Below are positions 20,925-61,594 of a stretch of DNA of 64,000 nt, one piece after another (position 1 is the first letter of the stretch; every line of letters begins with the position of its first letter). The stretch is from a virus. The notes beneath the pieces are model-generated. The model did not search any database, had not been told where the DNA came from, and saw only the letters and a program-made list of their open reading frames with translations. A program made the position numbers and the translations under genes. The stretch lies in the IMG/VR virus record IMGVR_UViG_3300016665_000824, positions 70,297 to 134,296 of that record. One strand, 5' to 3'.

Positions 20925-20928
20925 AACT

Positions 20929-24528: not shown

Positions 24529-24793
24529 CACAGTTGGTTTGATTTTTGGTAAGGAAGATAGCAGGACAGAGCAGGAAATCTCTGAGCTTGCGGAGGTCGT
24601 AAAAGCGGCTGGAATTAAGAGAAACCCTGCCATGTTTGCAAGATTTATTTACACACTCGACAAGACAAAAACCTGTCACCCGTCGATTGACCGTGAAGCC
24701 TTTCTGCTAACACTTCAAGAAGTATGGGAAGAGAAGGGACTCCAAGGACTTTCTCTCGCTGAAGAAATATATCAAAGAGGTTTTACAAGATGA
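24521..24793 (+). CDS. hypothetical protein
   Basis: 90-aa ORF. Confidence 0.35.
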   Translation: MSDTVGLIFGKEDSRTEQEISELAEVVKAAGIKRNPAMFARFIYTLDKTKTCHPSIDREAFLLTLQEVWEEKGLQGLSLAEEIYQRGFTR

Positions 24794-28105: not shown

Positions 28106-28331
28106 CCCAGCAGGACATTATCCTAGACAAGATGCGTCGGAAGCAATCGGAATTTGAAGACTACTACGTTTTTAGCACTCACGACATAGTGACCCTATGT
28201 GAGGACAGTCATCTGGACTGGGACTTGGCTTTTGACCAGCTAATAGCTTTAAACAAGAGGAATCTAGTTGCTATAAATCCGACATATTGCGATCGCACAG
28301 GCAAATTTATCGGATTGTTGTGGGGTTTAAA

Positions 28332-31410: not shown

Positions 31411-31615
31411 TTTTTTTGGCGTAGCGATCGGTAAATACTATCGCAATATTAAAACTGGAGACATATACCAAGTAGTTCTTCTTTCATTTTCATCTGAGTT
31501 GGGTACGGAACTTCTAGTTAGCTATAAGAAACAAGGAGACGCGCTTCCTTGGACTCGTCCCTTAGCTCTTTTTATTATTAAATTTGAGGAGGTCGGAAGT
31601 AATGTTCCAGCCTAA
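31403..31615 (+). CDS. DUF1653-like small protein
   Basis: GKYYRNIKTGDIYQVV ... LPWTRPLALF resembles the DUF1653 pattern; start at ATG 31403. Confidence 0.35.
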   Translation: MVDFFGVAIGKYYRNIKTGDIYQVVLLSFSSELGTELLVSYKKQGDALPWTRPLALFIIKFEEVGSNVPA

Positions 31616-32456: not shown

Positions 32457-32895
32457 CGAACAGATTGAAGCGATCGCCGAATCTCTTTATTGTAAAACCA
32501 GTGACGGTTTTTGGGAAGACTCACCTCCCGAAAAGAAACAATCAGTCAAGGAGGGAATAGCTTTTATCGCAAACAGAGCGATCGCTATCCAATCAGAGCA
32601 AGACCGCCGCAGCTTCATCGCCGTCGGGAAGTATATCGGCGTTACATTCACCTCTGAGACCGACGTGGTTTCCGCAGTCTACGACAAGCTCGACGAAATC
32701 ATGACGGTGTTTAGAGAGCATAGTCAAGAGATTGCGATCGCGCAGCAAATTAAAACCTTGAACAATCTACTGGAGAAATATGTCAAGCAACAGGAAGCCT
32801 CGCCTATTTGTACAGGGGCAGTGGGTGAAGAAACGGGAAGATCCTTTTGTGCTGGAGAAGAGTGCGTCGGAGGCTCTGAGGATTCAAACCTCTAG
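32416..32895 (+). CDS. hypothetical protein
   Basis: 159-aa ORF; 3' portion overlaps next ORF. Confidence 0.3.
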   Translation: MRMEKSRRVVVLNNEQIEAIAESLYCKTSDGFWEDSPPEKKQSVKEGIAFIANRAIAIQSEQDRRSFIAVGKYIGVTFTSETDVVSAVYDKLDEIMTVFREHSQEIAIAQQIKTLNNLLEKYVKQQEASPICTGAVGEETGRSFCAGEECVGGSEDSNL

Positions 32896-34944: not shown

Positions 34945-35301
34945 ATGAGTTATCCCCAAGACAGGGAGACTGCTAATGACTATCAAGAGTATGTCGTGAA
35001 GTATTCTAAGGGTTATGCTATCTATGGAACCGCAAATGCGTTGCCAGTCTATTCGCTCGGACTTGCTGGAGAAACTGGAGAAGTCTCAGAACTGTTGAAG
35101 CGGCATTTTAGAGGTGACGATGTTAGCCCTGAAGCCTTTAAGGAAAAACTAACGCTCGAACTGGGTGATGTAATTGCCTATGCAGCGCTAATTGCCCATT
35201 CTTTTGATATCCGCTTGGATGACGTGCTTCAGGCTAATCTGCACAAGGCGGCTAAACGAAACGCCGCAAATACTCAACTAGGATCGGGAAGCGATCGCTA
35301 A
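34945..35301 (+). CDS. MazG-like nucleotide pyrophosphohydrolase
   Basis: AGETGEVSELLKRH and ELGDVIAYAALIA motifs typical of the MazG/all-alpha NTP-PPase fold. Confidence 0.5.
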   Translation: MSYPQDRETANDYQEYVVKYSKGYAIYGTANALPVYSLGLAGETGEVSELLKRHFRGDDVSPEAFKEKLTLELGDVIAYAALIAHSFDIRLDDVLQANLHKAAKRNAANTQLGSGSDR

Positions 35302-38864: not shown

Positions 38865-39090
38865 AGAAGATGCTGAAGAATGCTTAGCTAAAAATCTAAA
38901 GGTTGTAACGCGCTATGGGCTAGGCGAAATTATTTCGATCGCCAAGAAAAGCGACCCAGTACAATGGGCAGAGATAAAACAACTTGACCGCGATCGCCAG
39001 TTTGAAGTACCCAGATGTCTATACCTATCGAGCATCAGCAGATATACTGCTGTTTTGGTTGAGCAAAGTGAAGTAGAAAGTATTTTTTAA
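38857..39090 (+). CDS. hypothetical protein
   Basis: ORF 38683..39090; start at ATG 38857 overlapping previous stop; last plus-strand gene before packaging block. Confidence 0.35.
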   Translation: MTREDAEECLAKNLKVVTRYGLGEIISIAKKSDPVQWAEIKQLDRDRQFEVPRCLYLSSISRYTAVLVEQSEVESIF

Positions 39091-40715
39091 TATCCCGATC
39101 GCCACACGATATCCATCAGAGTTTCCCTACCAGCGAAAGCAATAACACAAGCGTCACTACAATTAGGCGATCGCCCCAATCTACGAATAGTTTTAGAAGC
39201 CTTATCCTCAATGCGTAACTTCGCGTTGGGGGTTTCTTCGTAGTAGACGTTACTAAAGTCCGTCATCAGATATTCTTCCTCCTCTAGTGGTGCGATCGCC
39301 GATATATCGTCATTGCCATCGGCAGCAGCAAAGAATTCACGCAGTTTCCAATACCATTGAGCCTTCCAGTTCATATATAGCTGATCGAAGTCTTGGTTGG
39401 CATCTTCTTCTACCGCATCACCAAAGTTAGCTGCCCATACTTGCGCTCCCCATCCGCGATCGAGCAAGTAAGCTAATGTACCCGAACCAACACCCGTGGC
39501 ATCTATACCCACTTTACAGTTAGGATAGACGCGCAGATATTCTTCCTCAATGATTTGGGCAATACGAATAACGTCTTTGCGATCGCCTACACAGGGGATA
39601 ACCCTCGCGATCTTAAGCACATTACCTTGAAACCCACAAATAGCATGGTCATCACTCATGGAGCCGACATCTACACCAAAACTCCAAGGTGTATTGACAT
39701 TGATAATTGTTTCCCACAGATCGGGATTGAGATCGTATCTTGCCCGTGCCGCAACAAAGTAGCTCTTGGGAAGTATAGACGCGCCACCCGATTCCGAGAA
39801 CAAGCCCTCAATACGAGTCAGCCAGAAAGGTGAGTTTTCACCCTTCTTGATACGCATCCTTTCAATCCATGCGATCGAGATAGCACCCTTGATTACATCT
39901 CTGGGTAAGTCAGCATCCCATTCGGATTGAGGTTTGATTGGCTCGTCGCGAGAGTTGGGGTCATTAGGCGATCGCTTAATCTTTGCCTCGACCTCTGGTT
40001 TAAGTCGGTGCATCCCATCAAGATGCAGGTCGTAAGCCCATTCAACATTTGGGTGCTGCCATGCACTGCATCTGATATGGCTGAGGTTGCAAGCAGTATA
40101 GAAAGGGGAGTCACATCTGGTTGGGTTGCCAATACGAAGAATCTTATTTTGTTCCCCTGTAAGACAGCTTTCTAGGGAGGTATCTACGGCAGGACTGATA
40201 CCACAGGCTTCATCTTCAATAATAAGCATTCGTTCTGAGTGGATACCCTGCGCTGCCGAATCATTATGGTCACTACTGGAAAAGCCGTATGCCTCAACCC
40301 CTTCTTCGAGGAATACCCGCAGCTCATTTCTCTTGCCGCCGAGCTTCTTCTTGTGTTTGTCGTATAGACGACGGACAACGCCCCAAAGCAACTTAGTAAC
40401 CTGTCGGTGAGTTGGTGCGGTAGAGATAACAAGCGATCGCACAGCAAATACCGCCCAGAGGACTAACCACCCACTCAAGTATGTCTTGCCTAAACCGTGG
40501 CAGGCGGCAACATTGGTAACACGCTTGTTCTTGACCGATTCAAGAATGGTGATCTGTTGTCCCGTGATAACAATATCGGGTTCAAGGTATCGAATAAATC
40601 CTTCGGGGTCGTCGGCAAATCGGGTTAAGTCTTCACCGATCGCCACATCCCCCTCATTACCTGATACCAGCTTAATCTGCGTATTACAGCTCGTCTTCAG
40701 TCTCGCAAAGCCCAC
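39087..40715 (-). CDS. terminase large subunit
   Basis: Walker A ACHGLGKT, Walker B LIIEDEA, C-terminal RNase-H-like nuclease segment (FGVDVGSMSDD ... VGIDATGVGSG). Confidence 0.7.
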   Translation of the reverse strand: MGFARLKTSCNTQIKLVSGNEGDVAIGEDLTRFADDPEGFIRYLEPDIVITGQQITILESVKNKRVTNVAACHGLGKTYLSGWLVLWAVFAVRSLVISTAPTHRQVTKLLWGVVRRLYDKHKKKLGGKRNELRVFLEEGVEAYGFSSSDHNDSAAQGIHSERMLIIEDEACGISPAVDTSLESCLTGEQNKILRIGNPTRCDSPFYTACNLSHIRCSAWQHPNVEWAYDLHLDGMHRLKPEVEAKIKRSPNDPNSRDEPIKPQSEWDADLPRDVIKGAISIAWIERMRIKKGENSPFWLTRIEGLFSESGGASILPKSYFVAARARYDLNPDLWETIINVNTPWSFGVDVGSMSDDHAICGFQGNVLKIARVIPCVGDRKDVIRIAQIIEEEYLRVYPNCKVGIDATGVGSGTLAYLLDRGWGAQVWAANFGDAVEEDANQDFDQLYMNWKAQWYWKLREFFAAADGNDDISAIAPLEEEEYLMTDFSNVYYEETPNAKLRIEDKASKTIRRLGRSPNCSDACVIAFAGRETLMDIVWRSGY

Positions 40716-41271
40716 CGCTTAGTACCTCCCTGATAGTTGTTTGCGCTTGATCGGCGATCGCCATAATCGTCTCGGCTTTGGACTGCGGTAGTATTCCCTC
40801 GTTAGCCATTTGCGTCGCTAGTACATCGATTGTTGTCCGAGGTATCGCTGGCATAATCATCTCGATAATCTTGGGAGGGCAGCGCAGGATAACCTCGTTA
40901 GTAGTCTCTACCTCGTCAATGCAATCTAAGACTAATTCATCGGGCTTTTTCTTGTTTGGGACATACCGAGTCCTTTTAGTTCGAGAGGTGGTAGTCCTTG
41001 GAGACTTGTGGCAGGTTAAATAGTCTTCTACGCAAGCCTTAGCTAAGTTAATAAAGTAATCGGGCTGCGATCGCCTGTAGGCTAGTAGCGCGTCGTCAAT
41101 TTCTTCGCTCAGAGTTGGACACTCCTGTCTCAATCTGAGATACGTGTCTTTCGATAGAATACGAGGATCGTTTTTATAAATGGATTCGACCTCACCAGTT
41201 ATCCTGATGCGGTCTTTTATCTCCTTTATTAATGCGGGAGTTACCTGCTTGATTACGCCTTTCTTAGCCAT
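40684..41271 (-). CDS. candidate terminase small subunit
   Basis: 195-aa basic protein directly upstream of and overlapping the TerL gene; assignment by position only. Confidence 0.35.
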   Translation of the reverse strand: MAKKGVIKQVTPALIKEIKDRIRITGEVESIYKNDPRILSKDTYLRLRQECPTLSEEIDDALLAYRRSQPDYFINLAKACVEDYLTCHKSPRTTTSRTKRTRYVPNKKKPDELVLDCIDEVETTNEVILRCPPKIIEMIMPAIPRTTIDVLATQMANEGILPQSKAETIMAIADQAQTTIREVLSGGLCETEDEL

Positions 41272-41551: not shown

Positions 41552-41829
41552 AACACCACATTGTCAAAAGAAAATGGGACTAACTCCCCGTTGTCGAAGC
41601 GAATCCACACCCTCTCACAAGCGATCGCCACTGTCTCTACGGTTGCCTCAAGCCCATACTTGCCATTGCCAGGGTATAGGCATACTACGCGATCGCCTTC
41701 TTCGGGAGTATATCTTCCGAGGCGTTTTAGAACTGTCTTTAGCTTGTGTATCATATTTTGCTTATTACTAACGGCAAGCCTGTTAGGAGATCGCATATTA
41801 ACGACAAACTTCAAGCTATAGACTTTCAA
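41530..41829 (-). CDS. hypothetical protein
   Basis: 99-aa ORF. Confidence 0.35.
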   Translation of the reverse strand: MKVYSLKFVVNMRSPNRLAVSNKQNMIHKLKTVLKRLGRYTPEEGDRVVCLYPGNGKYGLEATVETVAIACERVWIRFDNGELVPFSFDNVVLCDQQNQ

Positions 41830-42169
41830 AAGTTACAGCTTGATTAGCAAACATCCTGATCTGCTGAATCAACATCATTTTGTTTTCAGGGTTCGATTCT
41901 GCTTTGAGTTGATCATGCAGATTTAAAATCCACTCAGTAACCTTGACTGTGGATTCTTTTGCGGGGCTATCAAACAACCCTATGATTTGTGCGATCGCCT
42001 CCTTAGAGATTTCGTCCCACCCCATAGAGTCAATACTGCTAGCCAAAACAAAACTCAGCCTATTAACCGCTTCGTGTTTAGCTTTTCTATCCTCGGTTGT
42101 GGGCGGATGATATTTAAACCAATCACTCAACGGGATACCTAGATATAGTGCTTCCATAATTCTCCTCAA
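41816..42169 (-). CDS. hypothetical protein
   Basis: 117-aa ORF; first gene after the 0.65-kb ORF-free region. Confidence 0.4.
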   Translation of the reverse strand: MRRIMEALYLGIPLSDWFKYHPPTTEDRKAKHEAVNRLSFVLASSIDSMGWDEISKEAIAQIIGLFDSPAKESTVKVTEWILNLHDQLKAESNPENKMMLIQQIRMFANQAVTFESL

Positions 42170-42826: not shown

Positions 42827-43309
42827 TTAGTTGGCTGCTCGACCACCACATCTAGTACCATCTGCGGCAGTCTGCCATGAGTATTGACAGTTTCCAGAGT
42901 ATCCAGAAGTGTTTGAGGGTGGATTGTCTAGCAAATAAACAGGCTTTTGCTGACAAGTTAAAGAAGCACTATCAAAGGTTGAATCCGTCGGGCAGGGGGC
43001 AGTACAAAGAGTCCCATCCCCACGTCTGTCGATAGTTCCTTTTGGGCAAGCACTACCAACCAGAAACCCTTGACTTGGAGAAGTTTTTTGTGATGAGGTT
43101 GGGATGCTTCTTGATTCGCTAGTCGTATTGATAGAAGTCCCATTGTTGCCCGTACATAGATGGTCCAGATTTACCAGAACCCCTCGGCTGTTGACCATAT
43201 AACACAAGGGCAAGTTGCTGGGTAGCCCCTCAAAAGGATCTTTAGCGATCGCTAGTTGAGGCAAGGCAAAAATAGTAACAAGAGACAACAAGACACCGAT
43301 CTTTTTCAA
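42827..43309 (-). CDS. secreted Cys-rich protein
   Basis: N-terminal signal-peptide-like segment (MKKIGVLLSLVTIFALPQLAIA), many Cys; a 42-nt inverted repeat (gtggtggt / accaccac) spans its stop codon. Confidence 0.45.
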   Translation of the reverse strand: MKKIGVLLSLVTIFALPQLAIAKDPFEGLPSNLPLCYMVNSRGVLVNLDHLCTGNNGTSINTTSESRSIPTSSQKTSPSQGFLVGSACPKGTIDRRGDGTLCTAPCPTDSTFDSASLTCQQKPVYLLDNPPSNTSGYSGNCQYSWQTAADGTRCGGRAAN

Positions 43310-43375: not shown

Positions 43376-44035
43376 CTAGCCTCCGTAATAGTCAGCACAT
43401 AAATACTCAAGCGATCGCCCTATTTTAACCGAGTAATTCTCACCCTCGATACTAGCTTCCTGCATCACCTTTTCTAAAGCCGCTCTCACGATCTCCACAG
43501 CGTCCGTAGGAACACTAAAGATCATTCGAGTGAATTCATCACTGGCTTCGGGAGGAGCTTTCTCCTTGGCGGCTTCGAGCATCTTGGCGAGACTTTCCTT
43601 TGTGTGAGGTGTGGGGAGATAAGCGCGATCGCCTAATTTCTTTTCAACCCTTTTGAGGGAAACACTTAGCTTAACTGGATCTTCTTCGCCGTGAGCCTTG
43701 GATGCGGAGGTGTATAACTCGTATTCTTCATCCTGTAAGCCCGTAATGACATTGCAATAGTAGTATTCCAGCCCCTCTAAGTATCTATGTTCGCCATTTA
43801 CAATCTCGTACTCACCCTCAATATGCGGATGGGGGCGAACAACAAGCGGCTCAATTTGGGTAAACATCTTTAAGCTCTCCCCCAAAGCCTTTTGGTGGTG
43901 AGGCTGCAAAACGTTTGAGTTCCAAGAGTTCGGATGTATCTTTGAGGTCTCAATCTTTACATTCCACTCTTTCTGGATTCGTTGCGCGATCGGTAGCGAA
44001 TAATCAATCTTCTTCGTCATCTTCATCCTCTTCAA
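43376..44035 (-). CDS. ParB-like nuclease-domain protein
   Basis: N-terminal segment (IHPNSW ... QIEPLVVRP ... YEIVNGEHRY) resembles the ParB N-terminal domain. Confidence 0.4.
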   Translation of the reverse strand: MKRMKMTKKIDYSLPIAQRIQKEWNVKIETSKIHPNSWNSNVLQPHHQKALGESLKMFTQIEPLVVRPHPHIEGEYEIVNGEHRYLEGLEYYYCNVITGLQDEEYELYTSASKAHGEEDPVKLSVSLKRVEKKLGDRAYLPTPHTKESLAKMLEAAKEKAPPEASDEFTRMIFSVPTDAVEIVRAALEKVMQEASIEGENYSVKIGRSLEYLCADYYGG

Positions 44036-45185
44036 ATTTCTTGGGCATAATTACCGATGTCAGGAATGATTCCTGCTCTACTCCGTCGCAAGGGCTAACC
44101 ATTACTAGCGGTCGAGTTCCCTCGTATACCTCCAGCTTAATGTGTTTTGATTTTGTGGTATCCAAAATATGCTGCAAGTATTTTATGTTGAACCGAGCAG
44201 CAAATCCTGACACGCCAACATCGCATGGCAGTGATTCTTCCACCCTGCCAACACCCGCAACTTCAGCAACAAGTATCAACTCATCACCCTTGATAGTGAT
44301 GTCAACCAAGTAGCTAGTAATCTCACCCTCACACAACGAAGCAACGGTCTTCAAGCTGGTAATCAGCTCTTTGCGATCGCACTTTACCGACCCAGACATC
44401 TCTTTGAGCCGTACGTTAACGAGACTCGATCGTACTGGTGGAAATGGTTGAGCAATTAGTGGTGAGATGATGGTTAGCGCGTGGCTATAAAACCAAATAT
44501 GGTTACTGGCTAAACGCACTTCAGTCTCTGCTTGGGTGATGTGCAGAACCTCTTTGAGCGATCGCGCAGGTATTGTCGCATTAATCAGCTTTTCACTCAA
44601 TTCGGGGTGGACAAATCTGATACAAGATCCTCGACAGCCATCGGTTGCTGTGAAGGATAGGAATCTCGTCGGGTCATCTTCACCATCAATGATTTCGTCG
44701 TACTCCGCTAGGTTCACACCCGTAAGTGCAGGCTTAGTTTCGTCGTTAGATACGAGCTTTAAGGTAGCCACAATGCCGTCCCGCAGTATATCTGTGGCGA
44801 TCGCAAAGGTGTCAGCATCAGTAATCTTGGGGGTGCTTGGGTATGAGTCGGCGCTGATAGTTGGTAGTGAGATTTTACTCTTACCACACTTAATAGTGGC
44901 AATACCTTCGGATACCTTGATTAAAACCTCTTCACCGTTGAGGGACTTTACCGCGTCGGAGAATCGCTTGGCATTGAGCGCGATCGCGCCCTCTTCTTTG
45001 ATACTATCGGAATCCTCTCTGCGGATTAGCCAAAGCTTTAGGTCGGTAGCTGTGATGGTGAAGAGATCGTTCTTCGCTTCGAGTCGAAAGTTTGTTAAGA
45101 TTTCCTGCGGTGGAGACTTAGAAACAGCTTCCTTTACTGCGTCCACCATCGATTTCAACGTTTTGAGAGGGAGTGTTAGTTGCAT
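44004..45185 (-). CDS. dnaN: DNA polymerase III beta sliding clamp
   Basis: 393 aa; N-terminus (LKTLKSMVDAV ... FTITATDLKLWL) matches DnaN pattern and length. Confidence 0.75.
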   Translation of the reverse strand: MQLTLPLKTLKSMVDAVKEAVSKSPPQEILTNFRLEAKNDLFTITATDLKLWLIRREDSDSIKEEGAIALNAKRFSDAVKSLNGEEVLIKVSEGIATIKCGKSKISLPTISADSYPSTPKITDADTFAIATDILRDGIVATLKLVSNDETKPALTGVNLAEYDEIIDGEDDPTRFLSFTATDGCRGSCIRFVHPELSEKLINATIPARSLKEVLHITQAETEVRLASNHIWFYSHALTIISPLIAQPFPPVRSSLVNVRLKEMSGSVKCDRKELITSLKTVASLCEGEITSYLVDITIKGDELILVAEVAGVGRVEESLPCDVGVSGFAARFNIKYLQHILDTTKSKHIKLEVYEGTRPLVMVSPCDGVEQESFLTSVIMPKKFEEDEDDEED

Positions 45186-45210: not shown

Positions 45211-45444
45211 TTACAAAAAGTTATCAATAACATTCTTCGCTCTGGCGATCGCCGCTCCAGAAGTTGTTTCTCCGCAGTCATGGGTATTGTCGCTGAGAAC
45301 CCCCTTAAAGGCGCGATCACATACAAACCAGAAGTAGTGCGGAGGGTATTGAGGTGAAGCCTGCTCCGTAATAACAATGCCTTTCTTTTTGTATTTTTCG
45401 ACGGCAACAACGTGGACGGATTTAAACAGGTCTGGCGGTTTCAT
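45211..45444 (-). CDS. hypothetical protein
   Basis: 77-aa ORF. Confidence 0.3.
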   Translation of the reverse strand: MKPPDLFKSVHVVAVEKYKKKGIVITEQASPQYPPHYFWFVCDRAFKGVLSDNTHDCGETTSGAAIARAKNVIDNFL

Positions 45445-45479
45445 TTTCTGCTCCTAAACTCTTTGGATGATTGTTATCG

Positions 45480-45983
45480 CTATTCAAAAACCGAGTGGCA
45501 AACGAGACATACATAAGCAGCGATCGCGTAGACATACTTATACTCCGATGGGAGGAATGTCGGTTGCAATAGGGCATATCCAAAGACTCCTGTGAAAACA
45601 AAGGCGATCGCTGCCACCATCTTTTTACCGATCAGTTTTGCCCATAGGTTGGCAAGACCTAAAACCAGCAACCAGAAAAGTAGTGACGGACGGAGCAACA
45701 GCCAGTTAACGAAGAATCTAACCGCATGGATGTCATGCCTGCGATGGAATAATCTAGAAACAGGGTGGACTATGCCGTGGTGAACGAAGTTACTTAAGGG
45801 TATGCAGTCTCGAAGTAGTAACTCGCGAGAAAGATTAGCGTAGGTCATGTGATGGGTCTGATTAGATTTTAGGAACGGGAATACAGCACACCTGTCGAAC
45901 ATAATGCTACGAAATTTTCGAGACTTCTGCTGCCAATCTTTTGAATGAATGTAGGCTTGATAATCTACTCTTACTTTTGTCAT
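45480..45983 (-). CDS. integral membrane protein with His-box-like motifs
   Basis: Hydrophobic C-terminal half; HHGIVH and HRRHDIH motifs; last gene of coupled operon. Confidence 0.4.
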   Translation of the reverse strand: MTKVRVDYQAYIHSKDWQQKSRKFRSIMFDRCAVFPFLKSNQTHHMTYANLSRELLLRDCIPLSNFVHHGIVHPVSRLFHRRHDIHAVRFFVNWLLLRPSLLFWLLVLGLANLWAKLIGKKMVAAIAFVFTGVFGYALLQPTFLPSEYKYVYAIAAYVCLVCHSVFE

Positions 45984-47128
45984 TGTTTTTTGAATCTCTT
46001 ATAAACAGTTTCTGTATACTCAGCAATACTGGGGTAGGAGTTTCCACCATAGGTTTGGGGACGAGTGTTGTTAAATAGAGCTGGATCTCCCGAATACCAA
46101 ATCGAAGCAGCCTTCCGAATTTGTTCTTCTTCGGATTTCGATGTTGGGGCGACCTGTTTTAGAGCTTCCTCTAACTTGCAGTCAATGATCTTGACCTGCT
46201 TAGTCTTGTCTTTAAGGAATTCCTGTTCGGTTAATGGAGAGCCGAGGCATTGAGTACTCCACGACTTGATGTTTTCAGGCATTATCTGCCCATAACCCAA
46301 TGCGCCGCTATCTGCATTGATAGCTTTATGGTCGTGGTTTGATTCTTGACCAGCGATCGCATTACGAAGTCTCTCAACGACAGGTTTGGCTGGAGCCTTG
46401 GTCGGCTCTGTCCCCTGCAATAACCACGAGACAATACCTCTTGGAGGATTAATCAACTCGCCCTTGAACTTAACTCCGACGTGCAGGTGTGGACCGCTAG
46501 ATGCTCCCGAATTTCCAGATTTGGCAATCATCGATCCGACGGGATGCCTACCTGAATAGCACTCGTTTAAGTGGAATAACTGGATTTCATATTCGGGTAG
46601 CAGAGGGCTGGTTACATAAGCTGCCACCCCTTCTGGCGGATTGAATGGGCTGAACGGGCAGGCAACATCTACAAAACCGTCATGAAATGCACTTTTAGAG
46701 CCTAATTTCCCGATCGCGTAAACAGGAGTTCCAACTGGAGTTGCGATGTCAACGCCTTTGTGGTCTTCGCTACATGATGGGCATGGTTTTTCTCTCTTAC
46801 CAAAGCCAGAAGTGACTTCATAGCCAAGTATTTTGTCCCCAACTTTAAGTGGCTCGTTAAAGTCCTCATCGGGCTTGAAGTTAACTTCAAGAGATGTCTT
46901 TGCGACTGTTGGTAGTCCCAGAAACCTGTAAGCCCACTTAACCGAATCGTTTGCTGGCTTGTAGAGGATCGCGATCGCAATTAACGCGATCGCGAATAAT
47001 TTACCGTTTCTCCAGCGAGTCTCCTTTGCTTCGAGCTTCTCGTGGTAAACGATCTGAAACTCTTTGCTGGTTTCCTCCAGTTTCGGTTTTGGTGGTAGAA
47101 GGGGTCTCTTCTGGTGGCTTAAAACCAT
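45980..47128 (-). CDS. membrane-anchored bifunctional peptidoglycan hydrolase (M23 peptidase + lytic transglycosylase)
   Basis: N-terminal TM segment (LFAIALIAIAILY); M23 motifs HKGVDIATPVGTPVYA and SGPHLHVGV; SLT-like segment GQESNHD ... GALGYGQIMPEN. Confidence 0.7.
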   Translation of the reverse strand: MVLSHQKRPLLPPKPKLEETSKEFQIVYHEKLEAKETRWRNGKLFAIALIAIAILYKPANDSVKWAYRFLGLPTVAKTSLEVNFKPDEDFNEPLKVGDKILGYEVTSGFGKREKPCPSCSEDHKGVDIATPVGTPVYAIGKLGSKSAFHDGFVDVACPFSPFNPPEGVAAYVTSPLLPEYEIQLFHLNECYSGRHPVGSMIAKSGNSGASSGPHLHVGVKFKGELINPPRGIVSWLLQGTEPTKAPAKPVVERLRNAIAGQESNHDHKAINADSGALGYGQIMPENIKSWSTQCLGSPLTEQEFLKDKTKQVKIIDCKLEEALKQVAPTSKSEEEQIRKAASIWYSGDPALFNNTRPQTYGGNSYPSIAEYTETVYKRFKKQ

Positions 47129-47567
47129 ATCTAATAGGCTCGTCTAGACCTTGATCGAGTTGCACGTAAAGTTGTTTGGTTGAGTTGGTAAGGAATTTAA
47201 GATAAGTAACCGATCCTTTCTTGCCTTCACAAAAATAGTTGGGGAATTCTTTGAGAACCTGTCTTGTTGTTTTACCTTCAAGCTTGAGGGCTTGACTCAT
47301 TGGTACAGGTATTGTCTGAGATGAAGTGGTAAGGCAATCTTCGGTGTTGCCATCGAGTACTTTTGCTAGCTGTGTCTCCGCGATCGGGCGGAGATCTACG
47401 AAGGCGAGATAGCCTTCTTCTGGAAGATTTAAAGAAATAGCGATAAGCGCACCTAGCAGCAATGCGTTTATCGCTATGTCACGTTTTTTCATTGGTTTAG
47501 CGACGCTCAGCCCTTGCTTGACGAGGAGAAAATGCCACATCGTCATTTTTTTTAGTGTTCTCGGCAA
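47001..47567 (-). CDS. hypothetical exported protein
   Basis: Signal/TM-like N-terminus; 3' part overlaps hydrolase gene in another frame (boundary uncertain). Confidence 0.35.
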   Translation of the reverse strand: MPRTLKKMTMWHFLLVKQGLSVAKPMKKRDIAINALLLGALIAISLNLPEEGYLAFVDLRPIAETQLAKVLDGNTEDCLTTSSQTIPVPMSQALKLEGKTTRQVLKEFPNYFCEGKKGSVTYLKFLTNSTKQLYVQLDQGLDEPIRYGFKPPEETPSTTKTETGGNQQRVSDRLPREARSKGDSLEKR

Positions 47568-48015
47568 CGATGTCGTTAACCTTTTTTTCTGCGATCACAC
47601 CAGTAAACTCTTTAACCGCAGAAACTCCGTTAAAAGCCCATGCGTTAGGCATTCCACCAGCTTCCGAGGTAGTGAGATAACGAGGCGTGGGATTGAAAAA
47701 ACTAAGAAGAGCCATAATGCCCATAGGAATAACCACGATCGCTGTGCATCCGTATAGAAGCGCCCATCGTTTGTTGCTCAAAACAGAGTCTATAAATGCT
47801 CTAGCGGAAACGATGATTGCCTGATGCTGATCTTTGTCGATCAAGTAAACTCTTTTACCTGATTCAAGTCCATCAACAAGACCATCACCGTTGATATCGC
47901 CACTAAAAGCCGTCTTACCTGCTTTCCCGTAAACAACAATATCGCATTCTGCTCGTTTCATTGTCATTGGTTTTCCTCCTCCACCGCCCTGTGGCGGCAT
48001 ATTTCCTGCGTTCAT
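47497..48015 (-). CDS. hypothetical membrane protein
   Basis: Gly-rich N-terminus and one TM segment (WALLYGCTAIVVIPMGIMALL). Confidence 0.4.
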   Translation of the reverse strand: MNAGNMPPQGGGGGKPMTMKRAECDIVVYGKAGKTAFSGDINGDGLVDGLESGKRVYLIDKDQHQAIIVSARAFIDSVLSNKRWALLYGCTAIVVIPMGIMALLSFFNPTPRYLTTSEAGGMPNAWAFNGVSAVKEFTGVIAEKKVNDIVAENTKKNDDVAFSPRQARAERR

Positions 48016-48018
48016 GTT

Positions 48019-49362
48019 TTAAGCCGTTCTTGGAAACAGCACTAGGTTGTCTTTACCGATCGCGAGGATTCTATCAAGAGCTTCCTCCACCGATTCTTCA
48101 GTGACTTCCGACTTCTCGGAATCAAACCTGAAGCCGTCCAGATGCTTGAGATCTGGCATTAATGCAATCTTGGGTATACCCATTGTGGTTAGCAATACTG
48201 GGCGATCGCCTTGCTTCTTAGCCATTGCGATCGCATCTCCAAGCATCCCCGCAAGAGATAATCTTTGCTGCTTATTAGGGAATAGTTTTGCATCGGCAAG
48301 AGCTGCTTCAATGGGCCTATAGCCAACATCATTCTTTTCACCCATGCGACCTAGCGCAAGAACTGAGAAGCAGCCTCGCACTGGGTCGCTGAAGCCAATT
48401 TGAGTACAAAGGTGAGTTTGCGCGACAAGAATAAGGCGAACACACATCTCTCTTCCCATAGCAACTATCTGATTGAGCATTCCAAAAAATTCTGCCTCTC
48501 TTTTTGAGGAAGCAATCATGTCTTGTAGTACCCACCACTCGTCAAGGATTAGATATTGAGGGGCAAAGACTGGGCGCTTCCCGCCTTCTCGTAATATCTT
48601 TTGTACTGCGCGAATCCTATTCTTCATGATCTTAAAGGCGCGGCTAATCTGCTCGGAAGCAGCATCAAGCTGCTCGTCTTGCGTGTCTTGATCTAAGTAG
48701 GTGACGATGCCATCTTCGCTTTGAAGCCCTAGCCAGTCCGTTGTCTTTGGATCGACAATACCGAATTTAGAAGCGGGGTTGATCTTCTTTATTCGCTGGA
48801 TAAGCGCCTTTAGCAAGGTAGACTTACCCGCGCCAGACTTGGTGGCAATCAGTACATGAAGATCTGTGTGAGCCACCTCGCCGATAATATCTCCAGTAAA
48901 CACTCCTTTCGAGTACTCGGTAACAGCTATAGGCTCTTCGTCCGTATAAGGCTCGTCATCAAACTGAGGAGGTCTAACTGCTGCTACTGGTTGAGGGCGA
49001 GGCGCGGATGTGCGCTGAACATTGGTATTGCGAATAATTACTGGGGCAGCAACTTGCTGTTGAGCGTGAGGCAGAGCTACTGGAGTCTCCTCGCCTTTGG
49101 GTTGTTCATCTTCAAGGTTGCTTGCCAAGCCGACACCTGACGCGATCGCCATGCCAAGAAAAGCCAAAGTAGCAATAGGATTATTGTAGGAACTGGGCTG
49201 AAGTACAGCCTGTTGCCCATGATCGTTAACACTTGAGTCTACCCTCCTGTATTCGTCTGCGGACTTAAATAGGACATCTCTCGGTAATACCGACCATCCA
49301 GCAGCTCCTAGCCATGCTGCACAGCTAATGCCTAATAGTAGGTTTACTGTTGACTTCTTCAT
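48019..49362 (-). CDS. membrane-anchored P-loop ATPase, FtsK/SpoIIIE/VirD4-like
   Basis: N-terminal TM segments, Pro/Gln-rich linker, Walker A TKSGAGKST, Walker B YLILDEWW. Confidence 0.55.
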   Translation of the reverse strand: MKKSTVNLLLGISCAAWLGAAGWSVLPRDVLFKSADEYRRVDSSVNDHGQQAVLQPSSYNNPIATLAFLGMAIASGVGLASNLEDEQPKGEETPVALPHAQQQVAAPVIIRNTNVQRTSAPRPQPVAAVRPPQFDDEPYTDEEPIAVTEYSKGVFTGDIIGEVAHTDLHVLIATKSGAGKSTLLKALIQRIKKINPASKFGIVDPKTTDWLGLQSEDGIVTYLDQDTQDEQLDAASEQISRAFKIMKNRIRAVQKILREGGKRPVFAPQYLILDEWWVLQDMIASSKREAEFFGMLNQIVAMGREMCVRLILVAQTHLCTQIGFSDPVRGCFSVLALGRMGEKNDVGYRPIEAALADAKLFPNKQQRLSLAGMLGDAIAMAKKQGDRPVLLTTMGIPKIALMPDLKHLDGFRFDSEKSEVTEESVEEALDRILAIGKDNLVLFPRTA

Positions 49363-50093
49363 AGCTTCTTGTTCAGTTTTCCAGCTTGGGCATTGGGGCT
49401 GGACTCGATTAGGTCTAGCCTTATTCTTTGAAGCTCGTCAAGATTGCTTCTTACTACTTCTGGAGCGGTTTCAACCAGTTCAACTCTTCCCTCGCGAGCC
49501 GCCTCAATAGCTAAAAGATTTGCGTTTGCGAGAATCATCTCCTTGGCATCTCTAGCGCGAGAAGCAGCTTGCTGGCGAGCTAGCCAAGCGTCTCGTTTTC
49601 TGTTTAGATCGCAGTCAATCCCTTTCTCGGATCGAAGGCAGTCTTTATCGTTTTTATCCTTGACCGCTTTGTTTGCGGCTTGGAGATAATCATTCGCTAG
49701 AATTTTTATTGCAGCGTCCGTGTCTTTGTCTAAGGCTGCTTTAGCACCAGCTTTCGCCTCGCTAAAACTAATCTTTTTGCCTTCTAAAGATTTTTGGAGC
49801 AACTCCTCGGATCTTTGGTCAAAGGATTTAGGAACGAAAGGATCTATTCTTTCTGCGGGTTTGGGTTGGCTGTTGACCACTGCCGCGATCGCAATAACAG
49901 TAGAGACAACGCCTAGCCCGATATATATTAAGTTTTTTGGAGTAGCCCAAGCGAGGTTCGACTGAGCGGGTGCTGTAGCTGCGGGTGTCGTGGGAGCAAG
50001 TCGGCTGGGCTGTCTTTCTGTGATTCGAGGGGTAGCGATTGGAGTATCCGCTACTTCCTCAAACTCATCTTGCATTGCGGCAGTGTCAAGCAT
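49359..50093 (-). CDS. membrane-anchored coiled-coil protein
   Basis: Pro-rich N-terminus, TM segment (IYIGLGVVSTVIAIAAVV), Lys/Ala-rich coiled coil. Confidence 0.4.
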   Translation of the reverse strand: MLDTAAMQDEFEEVADTPIATPRITERQPSRLAPTTPAATAPAQSNLAWATPKNLIYIGLGVVSTVIAIAAVVNSQPKPAERIDPFVPKSFDQRSEELLQKSLEGKKISFSEAKAGAKAALDKDTDAAIKILANDYLQAANKAVKDKNDKDCLRSEKGIDCDLNRKRDAWLARQQAASRARDAKEMILANANLLAIEAAREGRVELVETAPEVVRSNLDELQRIRLDLIESSPNAQAGKLNKKL

Positions 50094-52188: not shown

Positions 52189-52241
52189 ACACAAGCAACC
52201 CGCCAAGCCTCTCTACGATGCTGAAACTGGCGGGTTGCTTG
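52189..52241. terminator. stem-loop between convergent genes
   Basis: cacaagcaacccgcc ... ggcgggttgcttgtg, ~14-bp stem with ~23-nt loop, followed by T-rich tgttgtg. Confidence 0.45.
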
Positions 52242-52249: not shown

Positions 52250-52633
52250 TTATACCTGAGTGGCGAAGTATTTAGAGGCGATCGCGATAAGCCTTAATTG
52301 TTCGCTGGGATAAATCCCTGAAGGTCCAACTGCCTCATATAGTCTCTTTAGCACCTCAGCTTTGCCGTACTCGGAAATCAGTAAAGCCCATCCAAGTACA
52401 TGTAGCTGGAACAAAAGCTCTTTCTGGAGCCGTTCCTTATGAGCTGTACTCTTACCCTTAAACGTCGGATGTCGAACCTCTCGTACTCGCAGCTTGTTTT
52501 TCGGGAAGGAAATGTAGAGACTTGAGGTTAGGTATTCATCTATCAGAACGAGAAGTTCTTGGCGATCTTTTTGTAAGAGTTCTGCTTGCATAGACATACT
52601 CAAAAACCTTTGTATTTCTGCCAAGAAGTCCAA
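52250..52633 (-). CDS. hypothetical protein
   Basis: 127-aa ORF. Confidence 0.4.
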   Translation of the reverse strand: MDFLAEIQRFLSMSMQAELLQKDRQELLVLIDEYLTSSLYISFPKNKLRVREVRHPTFKGKSTAHKERLQKELLFQLHVLGWALLISEYGKAEVLKRLYEAVGPSGIYPSEQLRLIAIASKYFATQV

Positions 52634-53190
52634 AGGTTTTTTACTTCAATACCCTTTTTCTTGGCATATTTCACACAGTTAGCCGTACCACCTCTCGACC
52701 CGTCCCATAGTGCGAGCATTCTGTTAGCCCGATCGCACATCCACTCATTCCTAATCTGCATCGCCGCAGCCGAGTATGGCACATCAGGGCAATGCACGGC
52801 GATCGCCTTGTCGCAGATATACTGCCATTGGTCTTGCTGCGACTGACTCCACTTAAATGAGTGGTTTAAGCAAGGTACTGCGGCGACGAGAGGTATTTCT
52901 AATTCGATCGCTGCTAATGCGATCGCGGTGTCCCATCCCAAAGCCATGCCAGAAATAACAATTACAGGTCTTTCTTGCATCAAGGCATTCTTAGCAAGGG
53001 TAGTAAGTCTGGGCAGGGTTAAGGATTCGTATTGACTCCACGTACTTTGCAGCTTCTGGGGGCGATGTCCTGTGCCAGCAACGACTAATTGCCCGTCGGT
53101 AAGATCGAGTTTAATGTCGGAGGAGTCTGATTCGCTACCTATAGGAATATTAACTTGGAGCCAGTGATCGGTGATTGATATTGTTTTCAT
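52600..53190 (-). CDS. SLOG-superfamily protein (DUF1273/YpsA- or DprA-like Rossmann fold)
   Basis: VVAGTGHRP, VIVISGMALGWDTAIALAA and GSRGGTANCV motifs. Confidence 0.4.
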   Translation of the reverse strand: MKTISITDHWLQVNIPIGSESDSSDIKLDLTDGQLVVAGTGHRPQKLQSTWSQYESLTLPRLTTLAKNALMQERPVIVISGMALGWDTAIALAAIELEIPLVAAVPCLNHSFKWSQSQQDQWQYICDKAIAVHCPDVPYSAAAMQIRNEWMCDRANRMLALWDGSRGGTANCVKYAKKKGIEVKNLWTSWQKYKGF

Positions 53191-56526: not shown

Positions 56527-57237
56527 ATGTTTATGCGATCGCGTATCTCACTACCGATCGCTGACCATCCAACCATACTGGACAGTAAAAATATTATGTC
56601 ATACATAGACAGCCTGAAAGTAACTGCGAAGAAACATGCAATAATACAGGATATTATTTCTAGGTGCTGGAATTACTGTGTTCAACCACCCAAGAGACTC
56701 AATTCTGAGATACTTAACCATCCTGACATCATCAGCCTTATTGACCATAGCTGGGATAGCAGTATTGTTGGGCTAAACGAGTACCAAAAGCTTGTATTTT
56801 CCCTTGTCAGTGAAGGGGTAAGCGTTAGAAGCGAGTACCCTCTTTGTTTTCACGACATCTTTGTTAGGTTTCTATCGGAGATGTGCCCACTAAGCCAAAG
56901 GATTTCGATAGAGGAGAACTCTATCGACGAGATACACTTAAAATTTCCAGCCAAAAGAGGGATTTATTTTTGCTTGCGTACGGTTATTGGCTTTCGCCTT
57001 GACGGTTTTAAAAACGAAGTTTGGTATGTCGGGAAGTCGGGAAATTTTAGAGAGAGGTGGAAAAGTCACCACAAGTTTGAGGCTTTAAAGGCTATCAAGA
57101 ACGTTGCAGTGTGTTGGCTGCCCCTCGAAGATTACTCTGATGAGCAGCTAAGCTACGCAGAAGAAGTATATATTTACATGCTTCAACCCGTATTTAATGG
57201 CACTTCCAAGCCTGAAAGGTGTCTAGTGGTTAACTAA
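56527..57237 (+). CDS. GIY-YIG nuclease-domain protein
   Basis: C-terminal KRGIYFCL ... VWYVGKSGNFRERWKSHH ... EEVYIYMLQPVFN fits GIY-YIG. Confidence 0.5.
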   Translation: MFMRSRISLPIADHPTILDSKNIMSYIDSLKVTAKKHAIIQDIISRCWNYCVQPPKRLNSEILNHPDIISLIDHSWDSSIVGLNEYQKLVFSLVSEGVSVRSEYPLCFHDIFVRFLSEMCPLSQRISIEENSIDEIHLKFPAKRGIYFCLRTVIGFRLDGFKNEVWYVGKSGNFRERWKSHHKFEALKAIKNVAVCWLPLEDYSDEQLSYAEEVYIYMLQPVFNGTSKPERCLVVN

Positions 57238-59033: not shown

Positions 59034-59575
59034 CGCAGATGTGGAATACCCTTCTTGAACAAGACCCAAGGTTCAAGATGGTAGTGGACTTAGCAACCCC
59101 ACGAGGTAATCGCAAAAATGTGATGCCCCTCACCCGCGAGAATGTTCGGATTGCCTTCGCCGCATTTAATGACGGTATTGCTGAGCAGTTAACCGACTTG
59201 GCGATCGCCTGTTTTAACCGTTCCCACTCTCCTCGATTCGTCACCACCGATGAAGGTGATGAATTTATTGAAACTAGCGAAGAAGAAATCTATTATCAAT
59301 GGGAGCCTGAAGCGGCTTTGAGGATCTGCAACCAACGCCTTGATGGGTTTCTAATTGAGATCAGCGATCGTGGCACTATTACCAAATTTAAGTACGAGCG
59401 ACCACCTTTCCTGTATCCTCACGGCTGGGCCTATCAACCAACCATGCCCGAAGTTCCCGACGATCCTGAATGCTGCACGTTATTTGATCGAAGAAGCCAT
59501 GCTCGTCGCCGTCGAAGATTTGGGAATGTCGGCGACAAGTATGACCTGCATGGTAAAGCGTGGAAGAAGGGTTAA
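58997..59575 (+). CDS. hypothetical protein
   Basis: 192-aa ORF. Confidence 0.35.
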   Translation: MDEEQQPEHRTITQMWNTLLEQDPRFKMVVDLATPRGNRKNVMPLTRENVRIAFAAFNDGIAEQLTDLAIACFNRSHSPRFVTTDEGDEFIETSEEEIYYQWEPEAALRICNQRLDGFLIEISDRGTITKFKYERPPFLYPHGWAYQPTMPEVPDDPECCTLFDRRSHARRRRRFGNVGDKYDLHGKAWKKG

Positions 59576-59823
59576 GGCAGTATCCTGTCCAGCAGGTAGA
59601 TAATTAAGTGCATAGCCTTAACATTCCTGTTCGCGCAGTATATCTTCAGGCGAGTATGCAGTGAAGCAGGTAGATCAACCGTGATCCGCACAGTCCGCTC
59701 CTTCTCCCCTTCCACGGGCAACCCATCCAAAATATTTCCCGCAGTATTGTTTGTGTTCAGATCGGAATTAGCCTTGATAAAATTCTGCTCAATTGTTTCG
59801 GTAAGAGGTATACGCTTAGACAC
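59572..59823 (-). CDS. ParG-like ribbon-helix-helix protein (candidate centromere-binding partner of ParA)
   Basis: C-terminal RITVDLPASLHTRLKIYCANRNVKAMHLIIYLLDRIL is RHH-like; immediately downstream of and overlapping parA. Confidence 0.45.
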   Translation of the reverse strand: MSKRIPLTETIEQNFIKANSDLNTNNTAGNILDGLPVEGEKERTVRITVDLPASLHTRLKIYCANRNVKAMHLIIYLLDRILP

Positions 59824-60448
59824 AGCTCAGCACCTCCTCAAATAAAGCTTCGTACTCTGCCGCCGAATCTTGGGCGGCTTTGCTGTTTAATCCCCAGACA
59901 GTTGTGCGTTGACCAGACGAGTCGGCGATCGCCTGTTTCTGGTGAATCACTGTTTCTAACAATGGGATAACCGATATGGCTTTTAAGGTGGCGATCGCCT
60001 CTTCCTTGAGCATGGTTCGAGGGACTGCGCGGTTTAAAAAGAATGCGGCTCTGGGTAAACCCCCTCGCACTGACTGAGCTTGCAGTATTAGCTTTACTGA
60101 GTCCATTGCCGAGTTGAGGTCTAACCTTGTTGGTTGACATGGAACAATTGCTAGATCAGTTCTTAGTAGGATTGCGCGAGTTACCTCCGACAAGTTGGCG
60201 GGACCATCGAGGATTAAGTAGTCGCTCTTTAGGGCTGGTATTTTGTCGAGAATGCTGTCGGAATCGGACATGATTGTATATGCGATCGGAGTGGCGATCG
60301 TGCCTGCCCATTTACTTGAAGATTGCTGACCATCGGCATCGACCAGGATTACGTCTTTATCGTGGCGGCGCAGATACTCTGCCAAGTGGACTGAAGTGGT
60401 GGACTTGCCACAACCACCTTTTTGATTGACCAACGAGATTACAGTCAT
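59816..60448 (-). CDS. parA: partition ATPase ParA (small, type Ib-like)
   Basis: Deviant Walker A NQKGGCGKST, 210 aa. Confidence 0.8.
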   Translation of the reverse strand: MTVISLVNQKGGCGKSTTSVHLAEYLRRHDKDVILVDADGQQSSSKWAGTIATPIAYTIMSDSDSILDKIPALKSDYLILDGPANLSEVTRAILLRTDLAIVPCQPTRLDLNSAMDSVKLILQAQSVRGGLPRAAFFLNRAVPRTMLKEEAIATLKAISVIPLLETVIHQKQAIADSSGQRTTVWGLNSKAAQDSAAEYEALFEEVLSCV

Positions 60449-61050: not shown

Positions 61051-61250
61051 AAATATTAAAAAGCGATCGCCAATAGGCTATGTGATTTTTACGATTCTAA
61101 ACTTGATATCTCGATATGTCCGACGCAAAGATGACAGCTCCACCTTGGCTTCTTTCTTGTCGTACTGATACTTATTTTGTCTAACCCATACGTTAGGCTG
61201 CTCAAACTTTGTTACTAACTTTTCAATTGCGTACATCGTTGTAACTGGTT

Positions 61251-61440
61251 TAAAAAGCGATCGCTATCCTGAAGAGAGGTGGATAGGCGATCGCAAAATG
61301 TACATCATGAAAAATCCTCTCCCCACAATCTTAACTTGGATTCGCATTAAAAAGCGATCGCTATCCTGAAGAGAGGTGGACAGGCGATCGCTAAAATGAT
61401 TATCTAACATGACCTCTCCCCACAATTTTAACTTGATTTT
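61251..61440. repeat. two tandem ~97-bp repeats, each with a pair of HIP1 sites
   Basis: taaaaagcgatcgctatcctgaagagaggtgga(t/c)aggcgatcgc ... cctctccccacaat(c/t)ttaacttg at 61251 and 61348; ORF-free region upstream of the par operon. Confidence 0.6.
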
Positions 61441-61594
61441 GTGGCAAAAAAATACCGACGTCCTGTGGAGTGGTGGACGACGGGCTATGTAATCTCGATG
61501 GTCTGGAAATATTCTACGCGGTTTTGTGGCGCTTTTATTATCGAATCCCGCATTTAATCGATAATAACGAGAAAATTATTCCTAGATATTATCA

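Follow-up and report, generated by a model that had tools for sequence, protein, structure and literature searches.

A derived sliding clamp and an orphan ParB-fold protein are encoded by a conserved gene pair in an uncultured cyanophage clade

Introduction

Why does a phage carry the gene for a DNA sliding clamp directly in front of a gene for a ParB-like protein, and could the two products act together? The question is raised by a 64,000-nucleotide (nt) stretch of viral DNA (positions 70,297 to 134,296 of IMG/VR record IMGVR_UViG_3300016665_000824; hereafter the window), in which a dnaN gene encoding a divergent phage beta sliding clamp of 393 amino acids (aa) (44004..45185, minus strand) is followed on the same strand by a gene for an orphan ParB-like protein of 214 aa (43376..44020). 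Orphan phage proteins with a ParB-CTPase (cytidine triphosphatase) fold are abundant and widespread (PMC12704722), and a role for them in activating enzymes that modify DNA is only now emerging: DpdB (2023) is a ParB-like ATPase required by DpdA (PMC10164549), and a phage ParB (ParB176, 2026) activates the thymine dioxygenase 5mYOX on double-stranded DNA (PMC13229309).

Here we have followed up a preliminary description of this locus by computational analysis. The clamp and the ParB-fold protein each belong to a known kind; what is new is their coupling, a short N-terminal motif in the ParB-fold protein, and the derived state of the clamp. As a tentative reading, which could well hold, we propose that the phage clamp tethers the ParB-fold protein to replicated DNA as an accessory factor; in this proposal we infer the contact between clamp and peptide, the use of a host polymerase and the biochemical output, whereas the gene identities, the fold, the family to which the protein belongs, the synteny counts and the distribution of the motif are results of the analysis.

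Results

The way in which the two genes are joined depends on where the ParB-like gene starts. In its longest form the open reading frame (ORF) covers 43376-44035(-) and encodes 219 aa from a TTG. We take the ATG at 44020 to be the real start because the lengths of the homologues, the public gene call and the start of the homologue alignment agree: the nine close homologues (46-89% identity) all have 212-214 aa, the gene is called with 214 aa on an identical public contig, and the alignment begins at MTKKIDY. The pairing of dnaN with a ParB-like ORF stands as first described, but the 32-nt overlap given at that time needs the TTG at 44035 and has to be corrected to 17 nt (44004-44020). Scans for promoters and terminators around the pair gave results at chance level.

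The ORF at 44004-45185 encodes a true beta sliding clamp. Its product matches the three Pfam clamp domains (PF00712, 2.5e-22; PF02767, 1.7e-15; PF02768, 1.1e-09), all above their gathering scores, reaches 179.3 bits against TIGR00663 over residues 1-381 (cutoff 137.65), matches PHROG 947, ‘DNA polymerase processivity factor’, at 6.6e-54, and matches solved beta clamps from many bacteria at values down to 1.7e-21, which together confirm the earlier proposal of an element-encoded clamp. When 12 members of the window clade were aligned with six canonical clamps, an acidic insert of the form (I/L)(D/E)GEDDPT(H/R)F was present in domain II of all 12 and in none of the six. In the window this insert is the 10-aa IDGEDDPTRF (44661..44690, minus strand), and it directly precedes the cleft strand at 44625-44648, where the clade reads ATDGxRGS and canonical clamps read ATDGHRL, with Gly in place of Leu. 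All 12 clade clamps, moreover, terminate in 4-9 Asp or Glu residues, whereas canonical clamps stop at MPxR. The tail of the window clamp is EEDEDDEED (44007..44033, minus strand), preceded by IMPKKF (44034-44051) as a degenerate version of the MPxR cleft motif; across the clade the residues before the tail are variable (IMPKKF, VVKPKP, AKAVVD), unlike the hhMPxR of canonical clamps. The acidic tail is found also in relatives in which the ParB-like gene does not overlap dnaN and, since it is retained without the overlap, it is not a by-product of overlapping coding. It is canonical partner binding, and not the clamp fold, that the altered cleft makes less certain.

The downstream protein is predicted to have a ParB/Srx fold of the CTPase type. 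As a single sequence it scores 22.7 bits against Pfam ParB_N, under the gathering score of 26.3, and its best match among ParB-like PHROGs has a value of 1.4e-10; the nearest, PHROG 723, matches residues 27-199. A profile of 100 family sequences matches solved ParB, Noc and Spo0J structures at 5e-19 to 2e-17, with Caulobacter ParB at 5e-19. The AlphaFold2 (AF2) model built from the 100-sequence alignment has a mean confidence score (pLDDT) of 88.9, with low confidence in the N-terminal 15 residues; it replaced a first, unusable model from 10 sequences (pLDDT 56.8). The top Foldseek matches of the model are Noc, ParB, KorB and PadC (7nfu, 6t1f, 6sdk, 8qa9), followed by SerK, SbnI and sulfiredoxin.

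By alignment to the QPR, GERR and EN motifs of ParB, the nucleotide-binding domain would span residues 16-106 (43703..43975, minus strand), with the segments IHPNSWNSN, VRPHP and NGEHRY. Residues N34, R62, G76 and R79 are invariant across the 100 family sequences; in the nucleotide pocket, GxxR is kept as GEHR (G76, E77, R79) and R62 is kept as well, and the Box III Asn is retained in the wider family (LN). AF2 and conservation then delimit, at 43385..43678 (minus strand), a linker of helix-loop-helix form (residues 115-154), which a loop connects to a two-helix domain at the C-terminus (residues 172-212, G..LE.L.A.Y); the model suggests that this C-terminal module is probably a dimerisation module. 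The linker aligns with the helix-turn-helix (HTH) region of ParB but has LPxT in place of GKSRS, and Pfam gives no ribbon-helix-helix (RHH) or HTH match anywhere in the protein. A C-terminal RHH-like domain, seen by eye as a strand, two helices and a G-x-S turn, is not claimed here, as Pfam recognised no RHH in ten family C-termini. Judged by its sequence, the protein is of ParB-CTPase fold, with a partly degenerate pocket and without a recognisable HTH.

To place the pair in its family, a profile was searched against 1.8 billion representatives, which gave 979 family members at E<=1e-3, many of them ~215 aa long and matched over their full length, most carrying PF02195. The family motifs are hPNPWNPN, VRPHP, YEIIDGEHR, LNxxxGExD and a C-terminal G..LE.L.A.YLAG; the window protein is similar over its full length and shows hPNxWNxN, VRPHP, (Y/F)(E/Q)I(I/V)DGEHR and the C-terminal G..LE.L.A.YL. 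Six-frame translations of 80 IMG/VR loci with family members (plus others) were searched with purpose-built hidden Markov models (HMMs) and dereplicated at 90% ParB-like identity, leaving 64 distant clusters and six clusters of the close clade. A dnaN gene lies within 8 kb on either side in none of the 64 distant clusters, whereas it lies directly upstream in all six of the close clade. The reverse holds for genes of base modification: directly upstream of the ParB-like gene there is a DpdA-like gene (PHROG 887) in 26/64 distant clusters, a QueD-like gene in 23/64, and one or the other in 49/64, and a 7-deazaguanine gene of any kind occurs in the locus in 52/64, all against 0/6 in the close clade. 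Searches with DpdA and Que HMMs, which covered the window plus its 10-kb flanks (84 of the 134 kb), gave no match, and the place directly upstream, held by a base-modification gene elsewhere in the family, is here held by dnaN. An iterated QueD profile raised the matches from 23 to 47, and the added ones keep the CxxxHGH signature of PTPS, so that they are taken as QueD-like and not as proven QueD. The remaining distant loci include two with a D12 adenine methylase upstream (L080, L105) and one with a fusion of ParB to an N6_N4 methylase (L041); in Vibrio phage VH2_2019, a cluster of glycosyltransferase, methyltransferase and deacetylase genes lies upstream of the ParB-like gene.

A side observation concerns the QueD-like neighbours. 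In many phages (IMG/VR loci L038, L042, L048, L057 and about 20 more) the ParB-like gene is overlapped at its start by a stand-alone QueD/PTPS-like gene of 115-120 aa (CxxxHGH) and is followed by the genes for the small and large terminase, with no DpdA within 8 kb. No description of this order (QueD-like, ParB-like, terminase) was found in the literature consulted.

The two genes may, of course, be neighbours and nothing else. dnaN would then simply close a block of DNA-metabolism genes, the ParB-like gene would sit in its usual place before the terminase, and the N-terminal peptide described below would have another role or none. Terminase is indeed the most constant neighbour of the family: 43/64 distant clusters and 6/6 of the close clade have a large terminase gene downstream at no more than 3 kb, and in the window, too, the gene for the large terminase subunit (TerL) is on the same strand and begins 2.7 kb downstream of the ParB-like gene. 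The cultured cyanophages with dnaN, Nodularia phage 2AV2 and CL131, have no ParB-like gene beside it, and in one sub-lineage of the clade (L001, L002, L022) an 80-aa ORF intervenes between the two genes, from which it follows that tight coupling is not obligatory. However, dnaN is kept directly upstream in 6/6 dereplicated clusters that span 46-89% ParB-like identity while the other neighbours of the pair vary between relatives, and because it is kept in all six the pairing is not due to chance. The 17-nt overlap is likewise kept in most of the clusters, and the N-terminal motif occurs only where dnaN adjoins. On these grounds we consider mere adjacency somewhat unlikely, although it has to be reckoned with.

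That motif is the feature which would connect the two products physically. The preliminary description had suggested looking for clamp-binding motifs in the proteins of the element, and a candidate was found in the ParB-like protein itself. The dnaN-linked ParB-like proteins carry an N-terminal extension, MTKKIDYSLPIAQRI, in which L9 and P10 are invariant; the peptide bearing these two residues is KKIDYSLPIAQRI. The candidate clamp-binding motif, IDYSLPIA (residues 5-12; 43985..44008, minus strand), is proposed from its conservation in the clade and its likeness to the clamp-binding peptide of Hda, PAQLSLPLYL (QLSLPL), which is N-terminal and disordered and in which Gln is important but not essential (PMC11139829); it sits in the low-pLDDT N-terminus of the AF2 model. 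The pattern [ST]LP[ILVMT] is present within the first 40 aa of 9/9 dnaN-linked clade members against 1/254 distant family members. The sole distant member with SLP (P0247) was ruled out as independent support, having a D12 methylase and not dnaN upstream. Codons inside the motif differ synonymously between relatives, and comparison of these sequences indicates that the motif is under selection at the level of the peptide. Only one other real gene in the window has SLPIA near its N-terminus: it encodes a 236-aa GIY-YIG-like protein, MFMRSRISLPIADHP (56527..57237, plus strand; weak GIY-YIG match, E=0.0022), with ISLPIA at 56545-56562, and its first 25 aa are conserved in relatives (L009/L010) while the next segment diverges. 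Basic residues precede both SLPIA peptides and would suit an acidic clamp surface.

Canonical terminal clamp-binding motifs (QLxLF, QLxLxL) were also sought in every window protein; the matches were all of low specificity, and no conclusion is drawn from them. Among them is the first strand of the clamp itself, MQLTLPL, which agrees with the clamp-binding consensus QLxLxL and is similar to the SLPIA peptide; this strand is probably structural and the likeness a coincidence.

A peptide common to two otherwise unrelated proteins, conserved at the N-terminus of both, might alternatively be a signal for capsid targeting, processing or ejection, by which the ParB-like and GIY-YIG-like proteins would be packaged and injected as early effectors. 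ParB-like domains such as that of P1 DdrB are known to be packaged in the head (PMC5512222), and the ParB-like gene is near late and packaging genes. The motif, however, tracks the adjacency of dnaN and not any capsid gene, it resembles a known clamp-binding peptide (PMC11139829), and the family belongs, in our judgement and not by a formal test, to the ParB/Noc-like branch and not with DdrB, so that a capsid signal seems improbable to us.

Two functions that the name ParB calls to mind were also weighed. Public annotations give a ‘ParB-like nuclease domain’, and the protein might be a nuclease or a nucleotide-regulated DNase that degrades host DNA or nicks concatemers for the terminase. Nicking or NTPase activity is known for the ParB/Srx domains of Osa, ParB-methylase and GmrS (PMC5512222), and the gene stands just upstream of the small terminase subunit (TerS) and TerL genes in most of the family. 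Against this, no catalytic metal-binding motif was identified beyond the generic DGxHR, DpdB and ParB176, the closest analogues that have been characterised, act as accessory factors and are non-nucleolytic (PMC10164549, PMC13229309), and the family is coupled to base-modifying enzymes and not to nuclease partners. A nuclease is thus quite unlikely.

Classical partition, in which the ParB-like protein would bind the repeats at 61.25-61.48 kb as the centromere-binding partner of a distant ParA, is less credible still. A ParB-like fold is present, and a parA gene (59816..60448, minus strand; PHROG 164 ParA at 2.5e-43, with CbiA/ParA Pfam matches) and direct repeats occur in the same genome. But the ParB-like gene is, as noted in the preliminary description, far from parA (16 kb), and parA is overlapped by a gene of its own for an 83-aa RHH-type protein (59572..59823, minus strand; 56B_RHH 2e-5 and RHH_10 5e-5, both below cutoffs), with which it would form, judging from the sequences, a separate type-Ib-like partition pair. 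The ParB-like protein reaches only 29.3 bits against TIGR00180 (cutoff 58.45), has no Pfam match to HTH_ParB, and lacks the ParA-binding peptide LG[KR]GL in its N-terminus; the family adjoins terminases and modification genes in phages, and the census gave no parA signal. The earlier view that it is unlikely to be a partition protein is borne out, and we regard a role in partition as highly improbable. The repeats themselves, ~2.2 copies of a 97-nt direct repeat about 0.8 kb upstream of parA (61250..61478, found by Tandem Repeats Finder and a repeat search), are a candidate centromere or iteron, with the RHH protein, and not the ParB-like protein, as the presumed binder. As a separate observation, the presence of a type-Ib-like cassette in the genome of a tailed phage may point to a plasmid-prophage or carrier state; the ORFs that were scanned showed no integrase.

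The element that hosts both genes is a tailed cyanophage of ~134 kb, not a plasmid or an integrative and conjugative element. The clamp protein is 100% identical to one (P0010) on a 134,398-bp metagenomic contig, of which the window represents roughly 50.5-114.5 kb, and a 74%-identical relative lies on a scaffold of 140,681 bp. Packaging and structural genes in the window include those for a tail fibre, a portal (3257-4912), which is ~30% identical to the portals of the cyanosiphoviruses S-CBS4, CL131 and PaV-LD, and a large terminase (39087-40715). The cyanobacterial HIP1 octamer GCGATCGC occurs 186 times in the window (about once per 344 bp) against 1.1 copies expected from shuffles. Two DNA methylases of the phage, one of the D12 Dam type (11601-12518) and the other a C5 cytosine methylase (28287-29276), might have the GATC/CGATCG core of HIP1 as their target. 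Some 35 kb, which include the replication module, separate the portal gene from that of the large terminase, a spacing comparable to that in cyanophage CL131 (PMC6293099). Nucleotide searches with 43.0-46.0 kb found nothing in collections of phages and plasmids, where no close relative was found either, and a 43-nt sequence used as an exact pattern did not occur in JGI metagenome contigs; a scan of GTDB (one bacterial genome per species) detected the clade nowhere, its sole matches being weak C-terminal ones in Firmicutes, and gave neither a prophage copy nor a host assignment.

The preliminary description had raised the question of whether such a clamp belongs to an autonomous replisome. The phage encodes a DnaG primase (14579-16336), a DnaD-like initiator and DnaB (19698-22656), SSB and RusA. 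Neither a DNA polymerase nor a clamp loader was seen in the 84 of 134 kb covered (window and 10 kb on each side). The genome of CL131, a cultured distant relative, is complete; it carries genes for DnaB, DnaD, a clamp, RusA, PNK and dCTP deaminase and none for a polymerase, and its authors infer the use of host enzymes (PMC6293099). Because no polymerase was seen in the 84 kb here, nor in complete CL131, the comparison favours a phage clamp that would work with the host polymerase, DNA polymerase III (Pol III). Genes for nucleotide metabolism in the window comprise those for a HAD/PNK-type phosphatase (24790-25527), a dCTP deaminase (30180-30686), a ThyX-like protein (31584-32456), MazG (34945-35301) and a DUF4326 protein (12472-13122), and relatives encode a ribonucleotide reductase with a LAGLIDADG intein, plus PhoH; no hypermodification enzyme was identified, and no 5mYOX/TET-JBP gene was found among the scanned ORFs of the window.

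On both sides the flanks of the pair are as originally described. Upstream of dnaN lie a gene for a 167-aa protein and one for an M23 peptidase with an SLT lytic transglycosylase domain (45980-47128, minus strand); the peptidase gene belongs to a block (45211-50093, minus strand), kept in relatives, whose products also include an FtsK/HerA-like P-loop ATPase (48019-49362) and a number of small hydrophobic proteins. The block could be an apparatus for ejection or for crossing the cell wall, or serve in exclusion. Downstream, the Cys-rich protein (42827..43309, minus strand; 160 aa) has, from its ORF sequence, a signal-peptide-like N-terminus. Its gene is variable cargo between the ParB-like gene and the terminase, outside the conserved module, since relatives hold a different gene there, of 93-97 aa with or without DUF3850. 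A probable TerS of 195 aa (40684..41271, minus strand) overlaps TerL (39087..40715, minus strand; PHROG 2 at 8e-28); it has no family match, but its position 0.5-2.2 kb downstream of the ParB-like gene is kept in all close relatives.

Several further features of the window are recorded for completeness. An Rfam abiF RNA motif lies at 52199-52235(+) (46.9 bits, gathering score 37), within a block of minus-strand genes and upstream of a DprA/SLOG-like gene (52600-53190). Two sub-threshold matches may be due to chance: one to the Acb2/Tad1 hairpin domain at 41816-42169(-) (E=0.005), a possible anti-CBASS or anti-Thoeris sponge, and one to PglZ at 32416-32895(+) (E=9e-4). In the ORF at 62878-63405(+), a 12-nt tandem repeat at 63161-63257 encodes a reiterated EAPVE(V/T).

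Discussion

The tentative reading set out above, in which the clamp tethers the ParB-fold protein to replicated DNA, can be put together as follows. dnaN and the ParB-like gene would form a translationally coupled module of one clade of uncultured cyanosiphoviruses of ~134 kb. The derived clamp would encircle phage DNA, most likely serving host Pol III at forks that the initiator, DnaB, DnaG and SSB of the phage itself establish. The ParB-like product would be a small dimeric accessory protein of ParB-CTPase fold and not a centromere-binding ParB; its relatives in other phages are coupled to the DpdA transglycosylase, QueD-like proteins, and Dam-type and N6/N4 methylases, just upstream of the terminase, and its analogues DpdB (for DpdA) and the phage ParB of the thymine dioxygenase each aid a partner enzyme on double-stranded DNA. 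In the window clade the clamp fills the slot of the partner enzyme, the ParB-like protein presumably having gained a disordered N-terminal peptide, (K/R)xIDYSLPIA, that resembles the QLSLPL of Hda. Through this peptide the phage clamp could dock the ParB-like dimer on freshly replicated phage DNA, the GIY-YIG-like nuclease with its like peptide would dock on the clamp too, and docking would serve post-replicative processing, probably modification or maturation ahead of packaging.

A number of points weigh against this proposal. The conserved partner-binding cleft of beta clamps, that is the ATDGHRL strand and the C-terminal hhMPxR, is not found in the clade clamp, and with a cleft remodelled to judge by the alignment, docking of the canonical type and the use of host Pol III and of a host loader become uncertain. 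The Gln of the Hda motif is absent from DYSLPI and RISLPI, and the SLPIA motif was noticed post hoc. Two pocket residues of the ParB CTPases are lost in the clade: the Arg of QPR is N36, QPR thus reading NxN, and the Box III Asn is replaced in A106-S107. There is no DNA-modification partner adjacent to the pair, the Dam-type and C5 methylases being 15-32 kb off, and the 80-aa ORF parts the two genes in one sub-lineage. The negative result for a polymerase, finally, covers 84 kb, and ~50 kb of the phage genome lie outside it. If the SLPIA peptide fails to bind the clamp, the locus reduces to an ordinary phage clamp beside an ordinary orphan ParB-like gene.

One may go further and suppose a private network of clamp and clients, in which an acidic clamp insulated from the host would recruit proteins with xSLPIA, namely the ParB-fold factor and the GIY-YIG nuclease, for modification or maturation coupled to the fork before packaging. 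The replication clamp, and not a loading site, would then deliver the ParB-fold protein to DNA, and the Dam-type and C5 methylases of the phage could be the partner enzymes in a genome that is extremely dense in HIP1. In a bolder variant the ParB-fold NTPase would aid the loading or unloading of the clamp. We consider this network rather unlikely.

With regard to the tethering proposal, its interest lies in the fact that delivery by a clamp is one possible answer to how such a protein gains access to DNA without a parS-type site or an HTH. A phage clamp as strongly derived as this one, with acidic insert, acidic tail and altered cleft, may be insulated from host partners. More generally, ‘ParB’ annotations in phages are not to be taken as a sign of plasmid-like partition.

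Among known systems, the clamp is best compared with the beta clamps of other phages and plasmids (PHROG 947), which are likewise three-domain DnaN homologues on mobile elements, often without a polymerase of their own. Rhizobium phage 16-3 p081, Nodularia phage 2AV2 gp179, Aphanizomenon phage CL131 ORF145 and dnaN copies of cyanobacterial plasmids are only 23-28% identical to the window clamp; in this comparison the window clade alone has the acidic insert, the acidic tail and a degenerate MPxR, and it alone was found with a ParB-like gene coupled downstream. For clamps as DNA-tracking platforms of non-polymerase phage proteins there are T4 gp45 in late transcription (PMC2988020) and Mu MuC with the host clamp (PMC12867686); the analogy is conceptual only, in that no transcription factor is implicated in the window. 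The Hda-beta clamp interaction shares with the proposed docking a disordered N-terminal SLP(L/I) core, set in QLSLPL in Hda and in DYSLPI and RISLPI here.

With the canonical CTP-dependent DNA clamps ParB, Noc and KorB, the window protein shares profile and Foldseek matches, GxxR and VR(P). It differs from them in having 214 aa, no HTH_ParB, no ParA-binding peptide and no adjacent parA, and in the changes of QPR to NxN and of GERR to GEHR and the loss of the Box III Asn in the clade. DpdB has a ParB/Srx fold with a DGxxR-type motif, as has the window protein, but is about twice as long (~400 aa), with DGQQR and an SspE-like C-terminal helical domain; the window protein has a DGEHR-type motif and a different C-terminus, no dpdA lies near its gene, and no DpdA or que gene was seen in the 84 kb. 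A functional analogy to DpdB may still hold. The distant members of the family do come close to that system in gene order, standing directly downstream of DpdA-like genes, which queC/D/E and folE accompany, and upstream of the terminase; this is the order of cluster B mycobacteriophages, with a ParB-like gene, DpdA and queCDE, then TerS and TerL, and a DpdB-like ORF1 (PMC6392294).

The closest parallel to the window protein itself may be ParB176 (PMC13229309), a small orphan protein of ParB-CTPase fold that is likewise encoded by a phage beside a partner gene acting on DNA. Going by its published description, the domain plan is the same in both: an N-terminal domain for nucleotide binding is followed by a short helix-helix linker, then a disordered stretch and, at the C-terminus, a domain for dimerisation, and an HTH is not obvious in either. 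The partner gene is 5mYOX176 for ParB176 and, for the window protein, the sliding clamp, and for both proteins the closest structural homologues are chromosomal ParBs.

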